Virus record (IMG/VR): IMGVR_UViG_3300046318_000589
Strand: one strand, 5' to 3'
Length of the DNA stretch: 20,939 nucleotides
DNA from: a virus
Taxonomy: Duplodnaviria > Heunggongvirae > Uroviricota > Caudoviricetes
Part shown: piece after piece, positions 13,512-20,939 of the stretch
How the letters are laid out: each line of letters starts with the position of its first letter
Numbering within the stretch: position 1 is the stretch's first letter
Position numbers and translations under genes: made by a program
Notes under the pieces: model-generated
Seen by the model: the letters and a program-made list of their open reading frames with translations, nothing else
Database searches by the model: none
What the model was told of the DNA's origin: nothing

Positions 13512-15027
13512 TAGATTTTTCATATTCCTCAATGTAATCAATAATCTTATCGGAGAACCCATTAATATGAATCCAATTTCCATTATATCCGACACCGTTT
13601 TTATTGGTGGAAACATTTATCATGTAGGATTTTTTACACGTTGGTTGTGGTACGCTATCATTACTTTGTTCATCTGTAATAACAATAAGTCTATCAATAT
13701 CAAGATTATTAATTTCACCAATAGATTTTCCTAAATAGGTACTTTCGTTTCTATGTTTACAAGCTTTCATAAGTTTAAAACCTTGCAGATTTTTCGATAA
13801 ACGGCGTGTAATCTCTCCATTAACCTTATCAATAATTCTTTCTATGTCATAATTAATTCGATTTATGTACCCATATAAAGAAAATAATTCTTTTAATATA
13901 TCACTTTTTAATGCAGTAGCCTCTTTATCGGTTGCGGATTTTAAGAATATTTTATCAACATCAATTTCATTGTATCCAATAGTTTCTATAATAATATTTA
14001 CTGATTCAATAAATCCTTCATAAGTAATATATTTATTTCTTTCATCTCCAAATATTCTAACTTCTAAATCATCAAATTTTTCACGGGCAATCATTGCTAA
14101 TCCCCCAGCATTTTTCTCCTCACTACCCAGCATAGAACCACTAACATCAACTAATAGTAAAGTTTTACCGTACAGTTTCTCTTTATTAGAGAATAACTCA
14201 ATAAATTTTCTCTCTAAGTCATACTCAAATTGTGGAGTAATATCGTAAGCTTTAATAAAATTGATCGGTAAAAGTTTTGGGTCTTGTATTTGTGAAATTG
14301 CCTTACTAATACCATCATACCCAACAGTTTCCATGTTGCGTAGATTTCGCAGTGTTGCCAAACCACCTAACTGTTTATTATCTAATAAATCTTGCCACAC
14401 AGCACGTTTTTCTTCAGTGGTTTTGCACGCTGAATATCTAACTTCCCATGTGTTTGGTGTAGATAATGTATCAGTAACTATTTTTTTGAATAATTCTTTT
14501 TCAATATCGTTTTTAGGTTTTGGGTGGGTAAGGTTTATAATATCAAAAATATTGTATTCTTTTTTAGAGCCTTTGTATTTAGAGAATTGATATTCATTGA
14601 ACTTAGAAAAACAATCTGCAATCCCTCTAAGTAATCCTCGTGTAAATTTCTTTTTACTATCATCTCTACGATATATAGCTAGAAGTTCCCCCAAATCGTC
14701 CAAGCGATTTACTACTTGAGGAACAATCTTTCTTATTGGATAACCGTTCTCCGATAACAAAGAAATCAAATAGAGAGGAACGTGCCTTAATTTCATAGTA
14801 TGTTTTGCTTCAATGGCAACCTCTATTACAATTTCAGGATCAATATGCTTTACTAAATCTTTAATTCTATCTGCAACGGAAACACCAGATTCATAGAAAT
14901 TGTTTTCCCATAACATGCAGGACATGACTGTACGGCGTAATTGTTGCACATAATTAATTTTTACAGCTTTACCACCATTTTCAGTGAAAATAGTGGGGTA
15001 TTTAATTTTTTTATTTAAAGATGACAT
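13504..15027 (-). CDS. rsr: Ro60/TROVE-domain RNA-binding protein with vWA (MIDAS) domain
   Basis: LRRTVMSCMLWENNFYESG, KLRHVPL, FNEYQFSKY, LTHPKP, TPNTWEV and LGGLATLRNLRNM (TROVE). DVSGS...STYLG...ITDEQ form the MIDAS, followed by YMINV, GVGY and INGFSD. Y RNAs lie directly upstream. Confidence 0.93.
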   Translation of the reverse strand: MSSLNKKIKYPTIFTENGGKAVKINYVQQLRRTVMSCMLWENNFYESGVSVADRIKDLVKHIDPEIVIEVAIEAKHTMKLRHVPLYLISLLSENGYPIRKIVPQVVNRLDDLGELLAIYRRDDSKKKFTRGLLRGIADCFSKFNEYQFSKYKGSKKEYNIFDIINLTHPKPKNDIEKELFKKIVTDTLSTPNTWEVRYSACKTTEEKRAVWQDLLDNKQLGGLATLRNLRNMETVGYDGISKAISQIQDPKLLPINFIKAYDITPQFEYDLERKFIELFSNKEKLYGKTLLLVDVSGSMLGSEEKNAGGLAMIAREKFDDLEVRIFGDERNKYITYEGFIESVNIIIETIGYNEIDVDKIFLKSATDKEATALKSDILKELFSLYGYINRINYDIERIIDKVNGEITRRLSKNLQGFKLMKACKHRNESTYLGKSIGEINNLDIDRLIVITDEQSNDSVPQPTCKKSYMINVSTNKNGVGYNGNWIHINGFSDKIIDYIEEYEKSID

Positions 15028-15063
15028 TTTTTAACTTTCCGAGAAATGCTACGTTGCTAATAA

Positions 15064-15214
15064 TTTATTAGAAATAGAGAAAATAAAACACAGTCTAAAA
15101 TGCTGACGCTCTACCCCTGAGCTACATCCCCATAAAAATAGAGAGGATGGTATCGAACCATCGTCCTTCAGCGAGCCATAAGTATCTGTGTTTATCGCAA
15201 CTACTTCTAATAAA
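15064..15214 (-). ncRNA. yrlA: YrlA-like Y RNA (circularly permuted tRNA mimic)
   Basis: Minus strand order: basal stem TTTATTAGAAGTAG/CTATTTCTAATAAA; AAACACAG/CTGTGTTT; anticodon-stem equivalent GCTGA/TCAGC; variable loop AGGAC; T-arm GATGG-TTCGATA-CCATC; acceptor stem closed by a U-loop; D-arm TA-GCTC-AGGGGTA-GAGC. Confidence 0.88.
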
Positions 15215-15268
15215 AGTACACCCCCTGCACAAGAAATAAAATTTAGGAATGTACTTTTATTAGAAGTA
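15202..15268. repeat. Perfect 19-bp inverted repeat between the two Y RNAs
   Basis: TACTTCTAATAAAAGTACA (15202-15220) and TGTACTTTTATTAGAAGTA (15250-15268). Confidence 0.9.
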
Positions 15269-15351
15269 TCTTCAGGGAAAGTTAGAAACGGAAATGCACC
15301 AAGGTGCGATATAGAAAAATATAAGTAACCGTTTCTTTCGCCACTGAAGAT
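15268..15351 (-). ncRNA. Second Y RNA (YrlB-like, no tRNA module)
   Basis: Terminal stem ATCTTCAG/CTGAAGAT. The 5' strand GGCGAAAG fits the bacterial Ro-binding motif GNCGAAN0-1G with a bulged C. It also has AAACGG/CCGTTT, a pyrimidine-rich loop and a GCAC-CTTG-GTGC hairpin. The 5' end coincides with the predicted +1. Confidence 0.8.
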
Positions 15352-15357
15352 GTTATT

Positions 15358-15386
15358 ATAATAACAAATTATTTATCTTATGTCAA
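15358..15386 (-). promoter_or_regulatory. Sigma70-type promoter of the Y RNA-Ro60 cassette
   Basis: TTGACA-N14-TGT-TATTAT, 3 nt after the gp47 stop; +1 ~15351. Confidence 0.8.
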
Positions 15387-15389
15387 CAA

Positions 15390-16439
15390 CTATTTTGTCA
15401 TTGATGAAGATTTTTCATAGTAATGTAATAAATATCTATAAACTATCTCATTATTAATACCATTCACTTCGATTTTCTTTGAGTAATCCTGAATAATATC
15501 AATGACAGATTTTTGGGGAGCATCCATGCTGTATTGTAAATCAATATCTCTCTTTATTTTATTTTCATTTTCATAGATAATAACACTTAGGGGCTTCATT
15601 TCTCGTATCATTTCTAAACAACTTTCAACGGTCTTATCATCAACACCAAGTGCAACCTTCACATAAACCTTTTTATTAAAACAATCAACTAATTGAAAAT
15701 CATTGTCAATAGTAATATCCACCATGGTATTAACGCCGTGATGATGTTGTTCCAATACATGATTAACCGTATCAAGAAATCCTATCTTTTTAGAATCGTT
15801 CCTATCGTCCTTTTTATGCTGTATTAAGCATCCTAAATATACAATATTGCCAATGGTAGAACCATAATGAATATGCCCTGATATAACGTTTTTGAAGTGT
15901 TTAAATTCAGTGGTGGATATGCCTTTTGATAAGTATGTATCATTGGGGTGTTGTTTAAATCCACCAAATTCAAAATGTCCAATGCAATATTCCATCTTGG
16001 TATTTTTAACCATATCCATGATATTTTCTCTATTATCTTCCGTTATCCATGGAACGAATAATATGTTATCTTTTTCTAAAGGTTCATCAACAATAGTTAT
16101 TCTATCGGAATTGAACATATCATTAAAAATATGCAGGGAATTTACCTTATTAGTATTTTTATAATACACATCGTGATTACCCGTAATCATAATAATACTA
16201 AACTCTTTATACTGCGATAAGAAACTATCCAATAAGTTTTTAATGAATAATACGGATTTCATGTCGGGGGAAGTTCTGCTTTCAAAAATATCCCCCAAAA
16301 ATATAATCGTATCAGCCCCCTTATCAAACATAAGAGGAACTACTTTATCATATATGATTTTTCTAAAAGCCTCATGGTAAAAATCAGAATTACCTTTATG
16401 GAAGTCTATGTGAGTATCTGGAATCAGAATCGTTTTCAT
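15390..16439 (-). CDS. gp47: Mre11/SbcD-like nuclease (gp47)
   Basis: Metallophosphoesterase motifs DTH, GDIFE, GNHD, GHFE and GHIH. Confidence 0.93.
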   Translation of the reverse strand: MKTILIPDTHIDFHKGNSDFYHEAFRKIIYDKVVPLMFDKGADTIIFLGDIFESRTSPDMKSVLFIKNLLDSFLSQYKEFSIIMITGNHDVYYKNTNKVNSLHIFNDMFNSDRITIVDEPLEKDNILFVPWITEDNRENIMDMVKNTKMEYCIGHFEFGGFKQHPNDTYLSKGISTTEFKHFKNVISGHIHYGSTIGNIVYLGCLIQHKKDDRNDSKKIGFLDTVNHVLEQHHHGVNTMVDITIDNDFQLVDCFNKKVYVKVALGVDDKTVESCLEMIREMKPLSVIIYENENKIKRDIDLQYSMDAPQKSVIDIIQDYSKKIEVNGINNEIVYRYLLHYYEKSSSMTK

Positions 16440-16690
16440 ATATTTAATCCCTCAGACAAATCCAATTCTATTTTTTCTTCGTTTATCATTGTGGATAATA
16501 ATTCATTGACAGTATCAACTATTTTTGAACGCTTTTTTAAACAAGCATCTTTAAAAGTAGCTTTTAATTTATTTTTAGATTCCTCATCCATAAATGATAT
16601 TTCGTCAACCTTATTTCTCTCGTCTAAAATAAGTTGTAGGTTTAAAACTTCTTGTAACATAATCTCTTTAAGTTCGGTAGTTTTGCACAT
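16436..16690 (-). CDS. Hypothetical helical protein; probable start ATG 16690
   Basis: AAAGGAG RBS before MCKTT. The stop overlaps the gp47 start (ATGA). The longer ORF-track start lies inside the promoter. Confidence 0.6.
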   Translation of the reverse strand: MCKTTELKEIMLQEVLNLQLILDERNKVDEISFMDEESKNKLKATFKDACLKKRSKIVDTVNELLSTMINEEKIELDLSEGLNI

Positions 16691-16713
16691 AATTTTCTCC
16701 TTTATGAAAGGAT

Positions 16714-16742
16714 AATTTAACATAATTAAACAGTTTTGTCAA
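16714..16742 (-). promoter_or_regulatory. Sigma70-type promoter of the gp47 operon
   Basis: TTGACA-N14-TGT-TAAATT, immediately after a terminator. Confidence 0.7.
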
Positions 16743-16744
16743 TG

Positions 16745-16775
16745 AAAAACCCCATCAGTAAATAACTAATGGGGT
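16745..16775 (-). terminator. Intrinsic terminator of the intergenic RNA
   Basis: ACCCCATTAG-loop-CTGATGGGGT followed by TTTTC on the minus strand. Confidence 0.75.
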
Positions 16776-16945
16776 AAAAATAAATAATGCGTTTTTACAA
16801 CAAGGAGGTAAATAGCAAAATAAATCTTTTTTATACCAAATAGGAGATGGCAAAATAAATCCGATTTACCCCGACTACCAGGAAACCTGTAAGATAAATC
16901 GGATTTATTGCACGAGAAACCCCCACTACGCAGTGATTTACTCGT
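16745..16945 (-). ncRNA. Predicted ~200-nt structured small RNA of unknown family
   Basis: Bounded by a perfect promoter and a terminator. It contains two hairpin domains sharing GUAGU(G/C)GGGGU, a 15-bp perfect stem and two anti-SD repeats; no translatable ORF lies downstream of +1. Confidence 0.65.
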
Positions 16946-16951
16946 AAAGTA

Positions 16952-16980
16952 ATTATAACAAAACAAGTAATCCATGTCAA
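16952..16980 (-). promoter_or_regulatory. Perfect consensus sigma70 promoter driving the intergenic RNA
   Basis: TTGACA-N14-TGT-TATAAT, 1 nt after the gp55 stop; +1 ~16945. Confidence 0.85.
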
Positions 16981-16981
16981 G

Positions 16982-17644
16982 TTAAAAATCATCATCAGCA
17001 TTTTTATGATATTGGTTTATTCCCAAAACAATAGATCGGAGGGATTCTATATTTTCCTCATTCATTAATTGTTTGGGTAATTTTGTCTTTGCTTTTACAT
17101 AATACATCAAATCTTCATTATCCAAGGAATTAACATAACCCCTCGTTTCCAAGGCACTTGTTTTAAAGTTACTATTATCCTCATCGTTACCAAAATCAAC
17201 TTCCATATCATCCAAAAACAATATAAATTCCGTTCTTTTAGCTTTACGCTTATTCTCTTCGCAATATTGTTTGGTAATGGCAGTTTGAACACATCTTGTA
17301 AAGAAACCATAAGCGTTTGGTTTCTTATCGTCCTTATCTTTATAATAATCAGGATTGTAAGAATTTAAAACTTTAAGAACATCCATTAAAACATGACTGT
17401 TCATTTCTTCCTTTTCATCATAGCTTAATCTGCAATGCTTACGACTTTTTAAGTTATTGCGGGATAAATCTATAATACATTTCGATAGTTTATTATCCAC
17501 CAAATGTAACCCATACTTTTCAGTATAGGTTAATTCGGAAGCGTCTTTCCCTAACGATTCGTGGTACTTTTTTAATCTCGCTTTAAAATTCATTACAAGT
17601 GTTTCAAACTCATCTCTATCAATATAATAGTTCTTCTTTATCAT
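16982..17644 (-). CDS. gp55: T4 gp55-like late-transcription sigma factor
   Basis: NYYIDRDEF, KEEMNSH, LNSYNPD and PNAYGFFTRCVQTAI...EENK align by eye with gp55 (NYVNNKEL, KQEMIAD, LHNFDE, NPHAYITQACFNAF...KER). It lies upstream of gp47/46. Confidence 0.85.
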   Translation of the reverse strand: MIKKNYYIDRDEFETLVMNFKARLKKYHESLGKDASELTYTEKYGLHLVDNKLSKCIIDLSRNNLKSRKHCRLSYDEKEEMNSHVLMDVLKVLNSYNPDYYKDKDDKKPNAYGFFTRCVQTAITKQYCEENKRKAKRTEFILFLDDMEVDFGNDEDNSNFKTSALETRGYVNSLDNEDLMYYVKAKTKLPKQLMNEENIESLRSIVLGINQYHKNADDDF

Positions 17645-17665
17645 AAAATCTCCGTCTATAAAGAA

Positions 17666-17694
17666 ATTATGACACTCTTTTTAATTTATGTCAA
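17666..17694 (-). promoter_or_regulatory. Sigma70-type promoter for gp55
   Basis: TTGACA-N14-TGT-CATAAT. Confidence 0.75.
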
Positions 17695-18576
17695 ATTTTT
17701 CTCTTTTTTTCTTTTATCCTTAAAATACCTCTTCATACTCTTCACAAGAACATTAGTGTTGGTGCGGAATATTGGTATATATTCTTCCACATACGAAACA
17801 CCGTCTTTTTTACGGTTTTCCTCCAATGTCGATGTGATGTACACGATTGCGTCCGAAATGTTCTTATTACTCTCCCTGTATAGTTTATGACAAAAATTGA
17901 GGGACGGTACAACTTCAGGAACATATCCAGGTAAAGTCGATAATCCATCAAAGAAGTATATATTTCCAAGTATATAAGAAATACTGTCGTGTAGATATCG
18001 TATATTATGTTTATCTCTTATATATATTTTTATATACTTATTAACTACTTCTTTTCTTTCTTCATAATTTTGGGAAACGAGTATTTTTTCTAAAATATAT
18101 TTGGGGGTAGCGGTATTTCTTTTTAGATATTCAAGATTATGTTCCTCATTTAATAAATCCTTCACATATAAGCAGTAAGCATCTATAATATCTTGTTTTC
18201 TAACTCTTGATTCATAAGTTTCTTCCACAGGATTAAACATTAAATCTAAAAAAGTAAAAGGAATCTCTTCCTCTTCTTGTGTATCTTCTTTTTTTTTAAA
18301 TACTAGACCACCAAAGTAGTTTTCAAACAAAGATAAGTTTTTTGTATTTAATTTTTGATCTAAAGAAGTAATTAAACTATCTAAATAATTATTGAATCCT
18401 TTATGTATTATATTAATATTGGTGAGAGTTTCGTTAAGAAACTCGAACCTATTAAAGTAAATTTTATTACTTATTTTAATATTGCGAAGATGACTAAAGT
18501 CATCTTCCATAAAAATATTGAGTATTTTATCAATACTAAAAATTATTGATCTCTTTTGTTCATGTATATTTAACAT
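17686..18576 (-). CDS. Hypothetical protein
   Basis: 296-aa ORF with GGAGGA RBS and its own promoter; no family recognised. Confidence 0.7.
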   Translation of the reverse strand: MLNIHEQKRSIIFSIDKILNIFMEDDFSHLRNIKISNKIYFNRFEFLNETLTNINIIHKGFNNYLDSLITSLDQKLNTKNLSLFENYFGGLVFKKKEDTQEEEEIPFTFLDLMFNPVEETYESRVRKQDIIDAYCLYVKDLLNEEHNLEYLKRNTATPKYILEKILVSQNYEERKEVVNKYIKIYIRDKHNIRYLHDSISYILGNIYFFDGLSTLPGYVPEVVPSLNFCHKLYRESNKNISDAIVYITSTLEENRKKDGVSYVEEYIPIFRTNTNVLVKSMKRYFKDKRKKEKNLT

Positions 18577-18597
18577 GGTGTATCCTCCGTTAGGAGG

Positions 18598-18626
18598 ATT
18601 ATACCATGGATTCGTAAATAAATCAA
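18598..18626 (-). promoter_or_regulatory. Sigma70-type promoter overlapping an RBS-sequestering hairpin (18582-18599)
   Basis: TTGATT-N14-TGG-TATAAT; hairpin ATCCTCC-N4-GGAGGAT. Confidence 0.7.
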
Positions 18627-18631
18627 ATAAA

Positions 18632-19141
18632 CTAAACTATCGTGATGTCAAGTGTTTGAACTTCAAAGTTCACAGTGATTCTCATCACGGAAGTTGAAGT
18701 TGGATCAAAGGAGGGGTTGCTGATACCAACGGGAAAGCAACCCGTGTATTTTATATAAGCTATGGGAGTTAGATTATCTAAAGAATTTATGATAATTACA
18801 TATATATCTTTATACATACAGGTATTGTCGGGATCGGCTTCGTTATACGTTCCGTATAACTTCATCCAATCCACCAACACCTTATAATTGTATAGATTTT
18901 GTTGTAACTTCATATCTATGATTAATCTTGAGAAGTCATAACGATCAGGGAGGTACTTCGCTGTTCGGTTTCCCAGACCCAGGTAAACTGGGTCTGCGAT
19001 AACCTCAGGCGGAAGCACCGTCTGGATCTTTTGAGTAATGTTTAGATCAGGAATCCATAAGAGAAAATCGTCAGACATCAGGTCTGACGTATTTTCGTTA
19101 CATCTTTGTACTAAATCTGTCAAAACATTTCTACAAATCAT
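18632..19141 (-). CDS. Tail completion / tube-terminator protein (T4 gp3-like, gp19 tube fold)
   Basis: PDRYDFSRL, NLYNYKVLVDW, IIINS, CFPVGISNPSFDPT and VNF follow the gp3/gp19-family pattern. In marine T4-like phages gp3 precedes gp55. Confidence 0.65.
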   Translation of the reverse strand: MICRNVLTDLVQRCNENTSDLMSDDFLLWIPDLNITQKIQTVLPPEVIADPVYLGLGNRTAKYLPDRYDFSRLIIDMKLQQNLYNYKVLVDWMKLYGTYNEADPDNTCMYKDIYVIIINSLDNLTPIAYIKYTGCFPVGISNPSFDPTSTSVMRITVNFEVQTLDITIV

Positions 19142-19160
19142 CTACTCATTTTCCTTATGT

Positions 19161-19357
19161 ACGCTTCGCAATCCTTGACGGATTTGCTCGCTGTTAGTTT
19201 TTACTCTAGGGCTTGTAGCGTAAAGCGAAAAGCCCGATGGTTTCTCTATCTTAATTAGACAATCTGTCTGTTTACTTTAGAACGCTTCGCAATCCTTGAC
19301 GGATTTGCTCGCTGTTTGTTATGAAACGACCGTGCTGTAGCGTTAAGCGAAAGCACG
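19161..19357. repeat. Two ~121-bp units, each with an identical 35-bp repeat and a covarying hairpin; candidate replication origin
   Basis: ACGCTTCGCAATCCTTGACGGATTTGCTCGCTGTT at 19161-19195 and 19282-19316; hairpins at 19209-19235 and 19331-19357. Confidence 0.85.
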
Positions 19358-19513
19358 AAACACCATCTCTTTTTTTAATTAATGGAAACTTTTGTATGAA
19401 ACAAAACACTACGACTTTCTTACGCAAGTCTTGTGTTTTGGAATAAGACGTTTCTCATATATAATAAAATACAAAACCGACAAGAAAAAAAGATTATAAA
19501 AAAAAATAAGTAT

Positions 19514-19546
19514 AAAAAAAACTGTACCCTTTTTACAGGTACAGTT
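19514..19546 (-). terminator. Intrinsic terminator after the 19630-end ORF
   Basis: AACTGTACC/GGTACAGTT 9-bp stem plus a U-tract on the minus strand. Confidence 0.75.
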
Positions 19547-19629
19547 ATAGTGTCTGTTGAAATTACTATATGAGAACCTATAAGGTTTATAATATTAGAA
19601 ACTTTTTATTTTGTTTAAAAAGAAAGCGA

Positions 19630-20937
19630 TTAGGATTTACCGCTTTTACTCCGCCCATTCTTGACTTCTGATTTACACGGATGTTCACCATTAACAAGAC
19701 ACTTCTTTAAATATACAATATTACCAATATATTTAGAGGGGGCATGAGACCCTTGTTTATTTACAGCAGTAGAGATTTTATGAAAACCATCTAGTGACCC
19801 AGTTGCATCATCAATGTTCGTAACTTTCTGGGAGGATAACTGTTCCTTCGTTACTGGTTCGGACGTATTCATCAGGGGACTGTTTAATGGTCGCCCCTTA
19901 GCTTCTGTTAGTTGCCTTACGTTTTTAGTTACTCTAATCTTATAGATGGAGTATTTATTGATGATGTTATTCGCCCCAATGTCCATTAAAAATGAATGCT
20001 GAACGCCAACAATATTATGGAACAGCAAATTTACTTGCGATTCAATAAATTCTTGATCATTACAGTTTCCTAACATTACTTCATTGATACCCCCCCAAGG
20101 ATTTATGCCCTTCGCAAAGAGGTTGTCAACCGAGTGGTTGTTATTATCTTGATGACCGCAATTATTATTAAGGTCATTGGAAGAATTTCTGTTGGTAGCT
20201 ATATGAGAGCGTACCATTGAATATACGTCATTTAAATGTTTCTCAATATGATTATGGTTAATTGAGCTATTATTATAAACATTCTTAATGTCTTGTGTAT
20301 ATTCGTTATATTTATTTAAAAGTATTTCGTTTAATTTATCATTATTATTAACATTCATAGTTTTGAATGTCTTTGCGTAGGGTGATTTAAAAGCTAGTTC
20401 ATTATACTCTTGTTTTGAACGACAATTATAAACACCCACTACAAAACTATCACCTCTATTAAAGCATCTTTTCATTTCATTTGATGCGTAGCGAGAATTG
20501 ATATAGTTATAGAGAGCAACAGCATCTCCCTCCGTTACATCAAAACGTGTTTGAGGAACGAAATGAACCTTACCAACCGTCTTATCAGTGATAACATAAA
20601 TATTTTTTGAGAAAGTATTAATTGCGGGTTGTATTGTGTCAAGGGTTACTACTTGCTCTGGTAGAAGTGCTCTTTGTTCGCTCAATATTGTATTGATAAC
20701 TCTTTTAGTGTGAGAACATACATTATCTAAGCAGTTCACATCGGAAGTAATAAAATCCACCAAATTCTTGTCATATACGTTTTTATCTGCGGAAGTAATA
20801 CTATCAATCACATGATTATTTATTCTATGAAATTCCTTAACAATCAATATTATTTTATCATCATGTTTACCATTAATAAGATCATTAATATGTAAAGCAC
20901 AAGATAACATTGCACCAATTTGGATTTTAACTGCATA
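19630..20937 (-). CDS. Hypothetical protein, 5'-truncated by the window
   Basis: The frame is open from the window end (YAVKIQIGA-MLSC...). It has an Asn-rich central region and no recognised family. Confidence 0.65.
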   Translation of the reverse strand, partial: YAVKIQIGAMLSCALHINDLINGKHDDKIILIVKEFHRINNHVIDSITSADKNVYDKNLVDFITSDVNCLDNVCSHTKRVINTILSEQRALLPEQVVTLDTIQPAINTFSKNIYVITDKTVGKVHFVPQTRFDVTEGDAVALYNYINSRYASNEMKRCFNRGDSFVVGVYNCRSKQEYNELAFKSPYAKTFKTMNVNNNDKLNEILLNKYNEYTQDIKNVYNNSSINHNHIEKHLNDVYSMVRSHIATNRNSSNDLNNNCGHQDNNNHSVDNLFAKGINPWGGINEVMLGNCNDQEFIESQVNLLFHNIVGVQHSFLMDIGANNIINKYSIYKIRVTKNVRQLTEAKGRPLNSPLMNTSEPVTKEQLSSQKVTNIDDATGSLDGFHKISTAVNKQGSHAPSKYIGNIVYLKKCLVNGEHPCKSEVKNGRSKSGKS

Positions 20938-20939
20938 TT

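Follow-up and report, generated by a model that had tools for sequence, protein, structure and literature searches.

The interval between the gp55-like and gp47-like genes of an uncultured phage raises the question of whether it holds a gene for a stand-alone structured RNA and, if so, what such an RNA might do. The window that we analysed, a stretch of 20,939 nucleotides, is part of the genome of a freshwater phage that is distantly related to T4, with 30% GC and contigs of ~146 kb. Nearly all genes of the window lie on the minus strand. The Shine-Dalgarno (SD) sequences of its genes are of the AAGGAG type. PHROG and Pfam scans gave their order on that strand as tail tube, two unknown genes, a gp55-like gene, the RNA locus, an 84-aa ORF, a gp47/SbcD-like gene, a 362-nt gap, Ro60/TROVE, a gp46/SbcC-like gene, clamp, clamp loaders and NrdA/NrdB (Table 1). 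In the original prediction this locus had been singled out as a stand-alone RNA of ~200 nt, abundant and early, with a regulatory or decoy function and possibly working with the nearby Ro60.

A consensus promoter and an intrinsic terminator delimit the RNA locus

Read on the minus strand, the locus is a compact unit (16980-16744) made up of a promoter, ~200 nt that hold no credible ORF and a strong intrinsic terminator. The promoter, P1, carries TG at -15/-14 and is the sole 12/12 match to TTGACA-17-TATAAT in the 20.9-kb window, where 0.05 such matches would be expected. In positions 14000-20939 of the minus strand, the four strongest promoter-like sites (12 or 11 of 12 matches), which precede gp55, the RNA, a 296-aa gene and the Ro60 cassette, all have TG before the -10 element, as does P2 (10 of 12), the promoter of the gene that follows the RNA; this shared feature points to one genuine early-promoter class. 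From the promoter spacing, we infer that the RNA would begin at A16945, which is the seventh base after the -10 element and also the first base of the ACGAG/CUCGU stem. The terminator at the other end lies 55 nt upstream of the next start codon. These results bear out the original prediction, which had called P1 the best promoter of the window, had placed the start on the first base of this stem and had set a terminator at 16745-16775.

Contigs from 10 different samples agree in every letter of the RNA region, so that this is no assembly artefact, and our search for RNA-seq runs found none with the phage or the RNA sequence. It is highly probable, in our judgement, that the locus is a real, independent non-coding RNA gene. 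The predicted stand-alone RNA under a strong early promoter is supported by the anatomy of the unit, by the lack of a credible ORF and by the finding, described below, that the unit is lacking in four relatives, whereas the abundance that had also been proposed is an expectation drawn from the quality of the promoter.

Table 1. Features of the RNA locus and of its neighbourhood, in window coordinates.
Feature	Position	Strand	Remarks
gp55 promoter	17694-17666	(-)	
gp55-like late sigma factor gene	17644-16982	(-)	PHROG/Pfam
Insert absent from related phages (P1, RNA and terminator)	16743..16981	(-)	~239 bp between gp55 stop and P2; from alignment
Promoter P1: TTGACA 16980-16975, 17-nt spacer ending TGT, TATAAT 16957-16952	16952..16980	(-)	perfect sigma-70 consensus with extended -10
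Hairpin 1 (predicted): ACGAG/CUCGU stem, bulged U, AAAUC/GGUUU stem; motif copy 1 GUAGUGGGGGU (16929-16919)	16912..16945	(-)	z -2.8; begins at the putative +1
Hairpin 2 (predicted): perfect 15-bp stem 16909-16895/16868-16854, inner CAGG-UUU-CCUG hairpin; motif copy 2 GUAGUCGGGGU (16878-16868)	16854..16909	(-)	z -6.6, 0/200 shuffles
Hairpin 3 (predicted): 5-bp stem UGCCA/UGGUA, 9-nt loop UCUCCUAUU; anti-SD CUCCU 16846-16842	16834..16852	(-)	predicted mean unpaired 0.77
Hairpin 4 (predicted): 5-bp stem UUUAC/GUAAA, 9-nt loop CUCCUUGUU; ACCUCCUU 16809-16802	16794..16812	(-)	predicted unpaired 0.65
A/U-rich single strand, then intrinsic terminator: 11-bp stem 16775-16749, TTTTT, U-run to 16744	16744..16793	(-)	z -5.5
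Promoter P2 of next gene: TTGACA-17-TAAATT with TG	16714..16742	(-)	counterpart of promoter directly after gp55 in relatives
84-aa ORF	16690-16436	(-)	directly after RNA locus
gp47/SbcD-like nuclease gene	16439-15390	(-)	PHROG/Pfam
Ro60-cassette promoter, TG-extended	15386-15358	(-)	
CGAA-containing stem-bulge-stem module and 19-bp hairpin	15275-15350 and 15205-15268	(-) for the module	between Ro60-cassette promoter and YrlA-like match
Ro60/TROVE gene	15027-13504	(-)	PHROG/Pfam
gp46/SbcC-like gene	13409-11409	(-)	PHROG/Pfam

The unit is an insert that four related lineages lack

Relatives of the phage are scarce. Among 5.8 billion proteins, only four relatives of the gp55 protein were found (48-55% identity), and a search with gp47 yielded a fifth lineage. 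The junction downstream of gp55 is visible in four lineages (L011, L013, L035 and L164), and in all of them a promoter whose -35 element overlaps the last gp55 codons, then an SD and an ORF that begins ATGTGC, follow within ~40 nt after gp55. In the alignment, the window's counterpart of this context (ATGTTA-A-ATT, SD, ATGTGC) is P2. Since the promoter-RNA-terminator unit is missing in four related lineages, it is, as judged from the alignment, a lineage-specific insert and an autonomous cassette. Its absence from relatives makes the RNA gene accessory, and does not imply that the structure is unconserved.

The right end of the insert has the form of a PeSL, that is, a terminator stem-loop abutting an early promoter, a composite known from T4-type phages, where it marks the borders of indels in hyperplastic regions (PMC2839356, PMC4122927). 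In particular, the terminator (16775-16749) is followed by the TTGACA of P2 at 16742, at the border of the indel relative to the four relatives. The gp55-gp47 interval is itself hyperplastic, with one to three different small genes in the relatives; in one relative (L162, 86% gp47 identity), the contig starts 251 nt before gp47 in unrelated DNA and the gp55 junction lies off the contig. Throughout the phage clade, gp55 is followed by a conserved small ORF of 80-84 aa, which begins with Met-Cys and has a TG-extended promoter to itself (window 16436-16690 on the minus strand; L011:916-1161, L013:1174-1419, L164:2204-2446). It matched no family, and a longer, 95-aa reading of the window copy gave a weak ParG-like signal alone.

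Searches for the RNA elsewhere returned no homologue by blastn against 50,697 phage records, no exact 18-mer in IMG/VR, and nothing significant when the contigs of the relatives and the remainder of the window were searched by blastn and nhmmer. A pattern made from the two G-rich motifs of the RNA (see below) had 19 matches in IMG/VR, all of them low-complexity coding repeats of the Gly/Ser type, and a stricter version of it matched 0 metagenome contigs and 0 genome contigs. Neither gp55 nor gp47 had relatives in IMG/VR, and relatives of Ro60 reached 33-38% identity only. A search for partial gp55 fragments was likewise negative. The contigs of four low-share runs that matched 14900-17700 contained no variants of the RNA and no joints across the locus; they gave short identical pieces of the same phage together with unrelated short matches. 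Elsewhere in the window, one 121-nt unit of a duplicated hairpin region (19196-19316), upstream of the tail-tube gene, is missing in the contig of another sample (L157:9865-10231 compared with L156:12026-12513), which indicates that this region varies in copy number within the phage population.

The RNA is predicted to fold stably and matches no Rfam family

To evaluate the fold, we compared its energy with that of 200 shuffles and took unpaired probabilities from the partition function. The whole 207-nt RNA has a predicted energy of -62.5 kcal/mol (z -5.35), and 0 of the 200 shuffles folded as well. Hairpin 2, whose perfect 15-bp stem had been part of the original prediction and is present as described, has the lowest z of the individual elements (Table 1). 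The region between hairpin 2 and the terminator is weakly structured (z -1.6), as would fit a seed region.

The original prediction had matched the RNA to no family and had proposed an Rfam/Infernal search as a check. No family reached its threshold: at gathering thresholds Rfam had nothing in the window, and permissive covariance scans of 16600-17100 and 16850-16950 gave matches at the level of chance, the best of which was anti-hemB (21 bits against a gathering score of 49.5). The RsaOG model scored 15.7 bits against a gathering score of 50, and no tRNA or tmRNA was found. We also set aside several classes of RNA on other grounds. Type III antitoxin RNAs of the ToxI kind consist of near-identical tandem repeats of ~34-45 nt, whereas the two units here have just 11-17 nt in common. 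On inspection, the two units have no common hairpin-plus-handle of the sort expected of a CRISPR-repeat or guide mimic, there is no reverse transcriptase gene nearby as for a retron ncRNA, the shape is not the rod with a bubble of a 6S-like RNA, and the strong terminator speaks for a discrete RNA and against a replication-origin primer.

Two predicted loops expose anti-SD motifs

What, then, might the RNA do? The weakly structured region contains two sequences complementary to SD sites, motifs that we noticed after the fact. CTCCT occurs ten times on the RNA's strand of the 21-kb window, and two of these occurrences fall within the 78 nt that separate hairpin 2 from the terminator, where 0.024 would be expected. 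In the window, ACCTCCTT, the 3' tail of 16S rRNA, is confined to the RNA locus, and ACCUCCUU of hairpin 4 equals that tail. The RNA thus has two CU-rich anti-SD motifs in loops that are predicted to be unpaired (0.77 and 0.65), and it combines them with its own promoter, an intrinsic terminator and the lack of a credible ORF, a layout that is typical of trans-acting small RNAs with SD-pairing loops. The two loops, predicted to be open, make the regulatory role that had been proposed plausible, but they fall short of a proof of regulation.

We consider a trans-acting RNA that pairs with SD sites to be the likeliest role, at somewhat less than an even chance. According to this model, the locus would be a self-contained gene, acquired by horizontal insertion, for a ~200-nt non-coding RNA, which host RNA polymerase would transcribe early in infection from the consensus sigma-70 promoter and which would end at the intrinsic terminator. 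Hairpins 1 and 2 would form a stable structural 5' domain, and the weakly structured 3' half would display two redundant anti-SD seeds, CUCCU and ACCUCCUU, each in a 9-nt loop, ahead of an A/U-rich stretch and the U-tail of the terminator. The RNA would then pair in trans, conceivably with the help of a chaperone, with ribosome-binding sites of the GGAG type on early mRNAs of the host, the phage or both, and would block binding of the 30S subunit much as alpha-r14/AbcR and RsaE-type small RNAs do. In the case of NfeR1, whose loops are redundant, anti-SD pairing over 8 nt at the start region suffices for silencing (PMC10746234).

Several observations weigh against the anti-SD model. No homologues were found in the collections searched, and the stems of hairpins 3 and 4 are just 5 bp long and A/U-rich. 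In a scan for exact complements over the window and 10 kb more of the genome, no phage mRNA exceeded the generic complementarity of 6-7 nt to an SD, and duplex folding against 21 start regions returned loop-ridden A/U pairings alone. The model also leaves the duplicated G-rich motif of the 5' domain unexplained.

The duplicated G-rich motif could point to a protein partner

The motif GUAGU(G/C)GGGGU occurs twice in the RNA, as GTAGTGGGGGT (16929-16919) and as GTAGTCGGGGT (16878-16868), just where the original prediction had seen it. The two copies are 51 nt apart, each on the 3' side of a stable hairpin, and with up to one mismatch allowed the whole window would be expected to have 0.16 matches; placed side by side, they have the string CUG(C)-GUAGU(G/C)GGGGU-NNN-UCG in common. 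This arrangement raises the possibility that the motif pair on hairpins 1 and 2 binds, titrates or recruits a host or phage protein, a protein-binding or decoy function that we regard as unlikely, though less so than the readings that follow. The two copies may stem from a simple duplication. In the predicted fold, moreover, all three GGGGU runs are largely paired (the G-runs of the motifs are unpaired at 0.21 and 0.22), and there is no candidate protein.

In favour of such a partner, the strand UGGUAGUCGGGG(U) in hairpin 2 is identical over 12-13 nt to the loop E/helix IV strand of Bacillaceae 5S rRNA (L063, L062), which makes an rRNA-binding factor conceivable, and GUAGUGGGGGUUUC in hairpin 1 matches the same strand with one gap. 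Local alignments to the 5S strand as good as these were reached in 3/2000 and 0/2000 shuffle trials, figures that apply to 5S genes preselected with a pattern containing the motif, so that the match is selection-biased. Among four 5S genes taken regardless of the motif, none (0/4) contained it, and the 5S covariance model RF00001, which includes the three-helix junction and both loop E strands, had no match in the RNA. As a side observation, the repeated motif (16929-16919 and 16878-16868) corresponds to the Bacillaceae 5S strand when this is written as GGUAGUCGGGG, a match subject to the same selection bias. The motif may also be similar to GGUAGUG(G/A)G, a segment found in the human RNAs Y1 and Y4.

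Filler, a cis-acting element or an rRNA mimic as unlikely alternatives

The unit could also be transcribed filler left in a hyperplastic slot, in which case the early promoter and the terminator/promoter composite would be there for recombination and transcript insulation, and the RNA itself would be inert. An orphan sequence missing from four relatives would be expected in that case, as would an interval between gp55 and gp47 that differs in every relative, even to the extent that the DNA upstream of gp47 is unrelated in L162 with its 86% gp47 identity, and the right end does resemble a PeSL (PMC4122927). A 12/12 promoter, a fold with z -5.35, a 15-bp stem, a duplicated motif and two anti-SD loops are unexpected in decaying DNA, however, and in its strand composition the unit does not resemble decayed coding sequence from the phage. 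We therefore consider filler to be rather unlikely.

It is more doubtful still that the locus acts in cis, either as a long 3' UTR and terminator of gp55 or as an attenuating leader for the small ORF, gp47 or the Ro60 block. Transcripts from the gp55 promoter must cross the RNA locus, and the proximity of the terminator to the next start codon would suit an attenuator. Against this, P2, the ancestral promoter of the downstream gene, is still in place immediately behind the terminator, and P1 would be purposeless in a mere 3' UTR; no antiterminator pairing is evident beyond 5 bp, and riboswitch and leader families had no match.

When the 5S-like strands are combined with the copy of the 16S tail, a further possibility arises, namely that the RNA mimics rRNA. 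The 16S tail ACCUCCUU and CUCCU, together with the two strands that resemble 5S loop E/helix IV, would act as a sponge for a host factor that attacks rRNA or keeps it under surveillance. The trapped factor may be the Ro60/PNPase surveillance machinery or a toxin of the MazF or RelE type that cleaves within the anti-SD region. Toxins that cut the anti-SD region exist (PMC12274833, PMC12620021), and the pseudo-ToxI of phage phiTE is an RNA-based counter-defence (PMC3475682). We view this idea as a long shot.

The RNA lacks the Y RNA features that we examined

The suggestion that the RNA works with the phage's Ro60 was not borne out. Y RNAs have a 5'/3' terminal stem with a bulged helix and a motif of the CGAA type, and the latter was used to find the Y RNAs of phage phiLo (PMC12135203). 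The RNA has neither: its 5' end pairs within hairpin 1 and its 3' end is the terminator, and the CGAA motif is absent, as are a T-arm and a D-arm. The YrlA model, which combines tRNA-like T- and D-arms with the Ro-binding stem, found no match in 16600-17100 at E 10 or better. In contrast, a YrlA-like match (RF02553), a permuted tRNA mimic, lies just upstream of Ro60, at 15084-15192 on the minus strand (32.3 bits against a gathering score of 69; E 3e-5), with the T-arm preceding the D-arm. Together with the modules upstream of this match (Table 1), it indicates, as far as sequence can, that the real Y RNAs of the phage are at about 15084-15350, in the gap 15028-15389.

That the RNA is a third, Y-type RNA of the phage is for these reasons very improbable. 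The distance to Ro60, which is downstream, is 1.7 kb, the two units are alike in being accessory, and hairpin 1 consists of a stem, a 1-nt bulge and a stem and begins CGAG, all of which would suit a Y-type RNA. However, Ro60 already has its own promoter and Y RNAs, and the RNA is separated from it by its own terminator, P2, two genes (the 84-aa ORF and gp47) and the promoter of the Ro60 cassette. The co-occurrence of the two units is uninformative, since L011 lacks both the RNA unit and Ro60, and L163 and L162 have Ro60 with the gp55 junction off the contig.

Comparison of the gp47-gp46 slot among relatives gave observations of its own. In L163 (1815-3119; 55% gp47 identity), a Ro60 gene (434 aa) lies between gp47 and gp46, followed by a 137-aa gene and a D12 methyltransferase gene, and in L011 (3138-4774; 53% gp47 identity) the slot is without Ro60 and contains a 146-aa gene, a DUF7173 gene and a methyltransferase gene; Ro60 is thus variable cargo of this slot. 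In L162 (1320-1568, compared with window 15028-15389), the first Y-type module is kept with stem changes from GGCGAAAG to GGTGACAA and from TTTCTAAC to TTTTTAAT and with an altered loop, and the YrlA-like tRNA mimic is wholly missing although Ro60 (507 aa) is present.

The locus is most unlikely to encode a protein

We put the chance that the locus encodes a protein of 69 aa (or 56 aa) lowest of all: although a 69-codon frame is open in DNA of 30% GC, its ATG, at 16975, is the last base of the -35 hexamer, as the original prediction had it in placing the start of this ORF inside the promoter; no SD precedes either ORF, gene callers placed no gene at the locus in any of 10 contigs, the 69-aa product has no Pfam or PHROG match and is predicted to be rich in F, L, Y and C, the RNA strand, with 42% T and 24% A, is T-rich in a way that is unlike the phage's genes, which have 31% T and 39% A, and in 7% of dinucleotide shuffles a frame of at least 71 codons is open. 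The plus strand of the locus has no ORF of at least 20 aa; a plus-strand gene behind AAGGAGGT, the sequence opposite the anti-SD, was rejected for this reason and for want of a start codon at a usable distance.

Discussion

To our knowledge, hardly any work has been done on small RNAs in virulent T4-type phages, and the annotation of uncultured phages stops at their proteins. Against this background, the locus is, on present evidence, a clean candidate and not a discovery: it is plausibly an orphan RNA of a known regulator kind that is carried as a mobile cassette. If the RNA is made and pairs with ribosome-binding sites, it would give the phage a compact, mobile means of damping SD-dependent translation early in infection, and it would mean that RNA genes, and not ORFs alone, can be carried between the terminator/promoter composites by which T4-type phages reshuffle their hyperplastic regions.

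In low-GC Gram-positive bacteria, the C/U-rich loops of RsaE/RoxS and of the RNAIII hairpins pair with SD sequences, and these RNAs have an extended -10 promoter and an intrinsic terminator. The phage RNA resembles them in its pyrimidine-rich loops, its extended -10 promoter and its intrinsic terminator, and differs from them in having no Rfam match. It is also like alpha-r14 ('cuckoo', NfeR1/CcsR) and AbcR1/2 of Alphaproteobacteria in being a stand-alone small RNA gene with multiple hairpins that present redundant CU-rich loop seeds on differing stems; in alpha-r14, several hairpins with differing stems display the same anti-SD motif, so that the seeds are redundant (PMC10746234). What sets the phage RNA apart from these is that its gene belongs to a lytic phage, that a further stable domain, with the duplicated G-rich motif, lies at its 5' end, and that it uses CUCCU and ACCUCCUU as seeds in place of the ultraconserved CCUCCUCCC. 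Sequence and covariance models reveal no relationship to them, and membership in the alpha-r14/cuckoo sequence family was rejected because the RNA has no CCUCCUCCC loops and reaches the threshold of no Rfam family.

With YrlA (RF02553) and with Yrl1/Yrl2 of the Thermus phage phiLo (PMC12135203), the RNA has in common that it is small and structured and that the phage also encodes Ro60, whereas it fails every Y RNA feature that we checked (the YrlA model, the terminal stem, CGAA and adjacency to Ro60). The nearest parallel to the cassette as a whole is with the PeSL cassettes of T4-type phages, in which, as here, a terminator stem-loop adjoins an early promoter at an indel border in a hyperplastic region. 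PeSLs have been described as flanking protein-coding ORFs (PMC2839356, PMC4122927), whereas the cargo of the present cassette would be an RNA.
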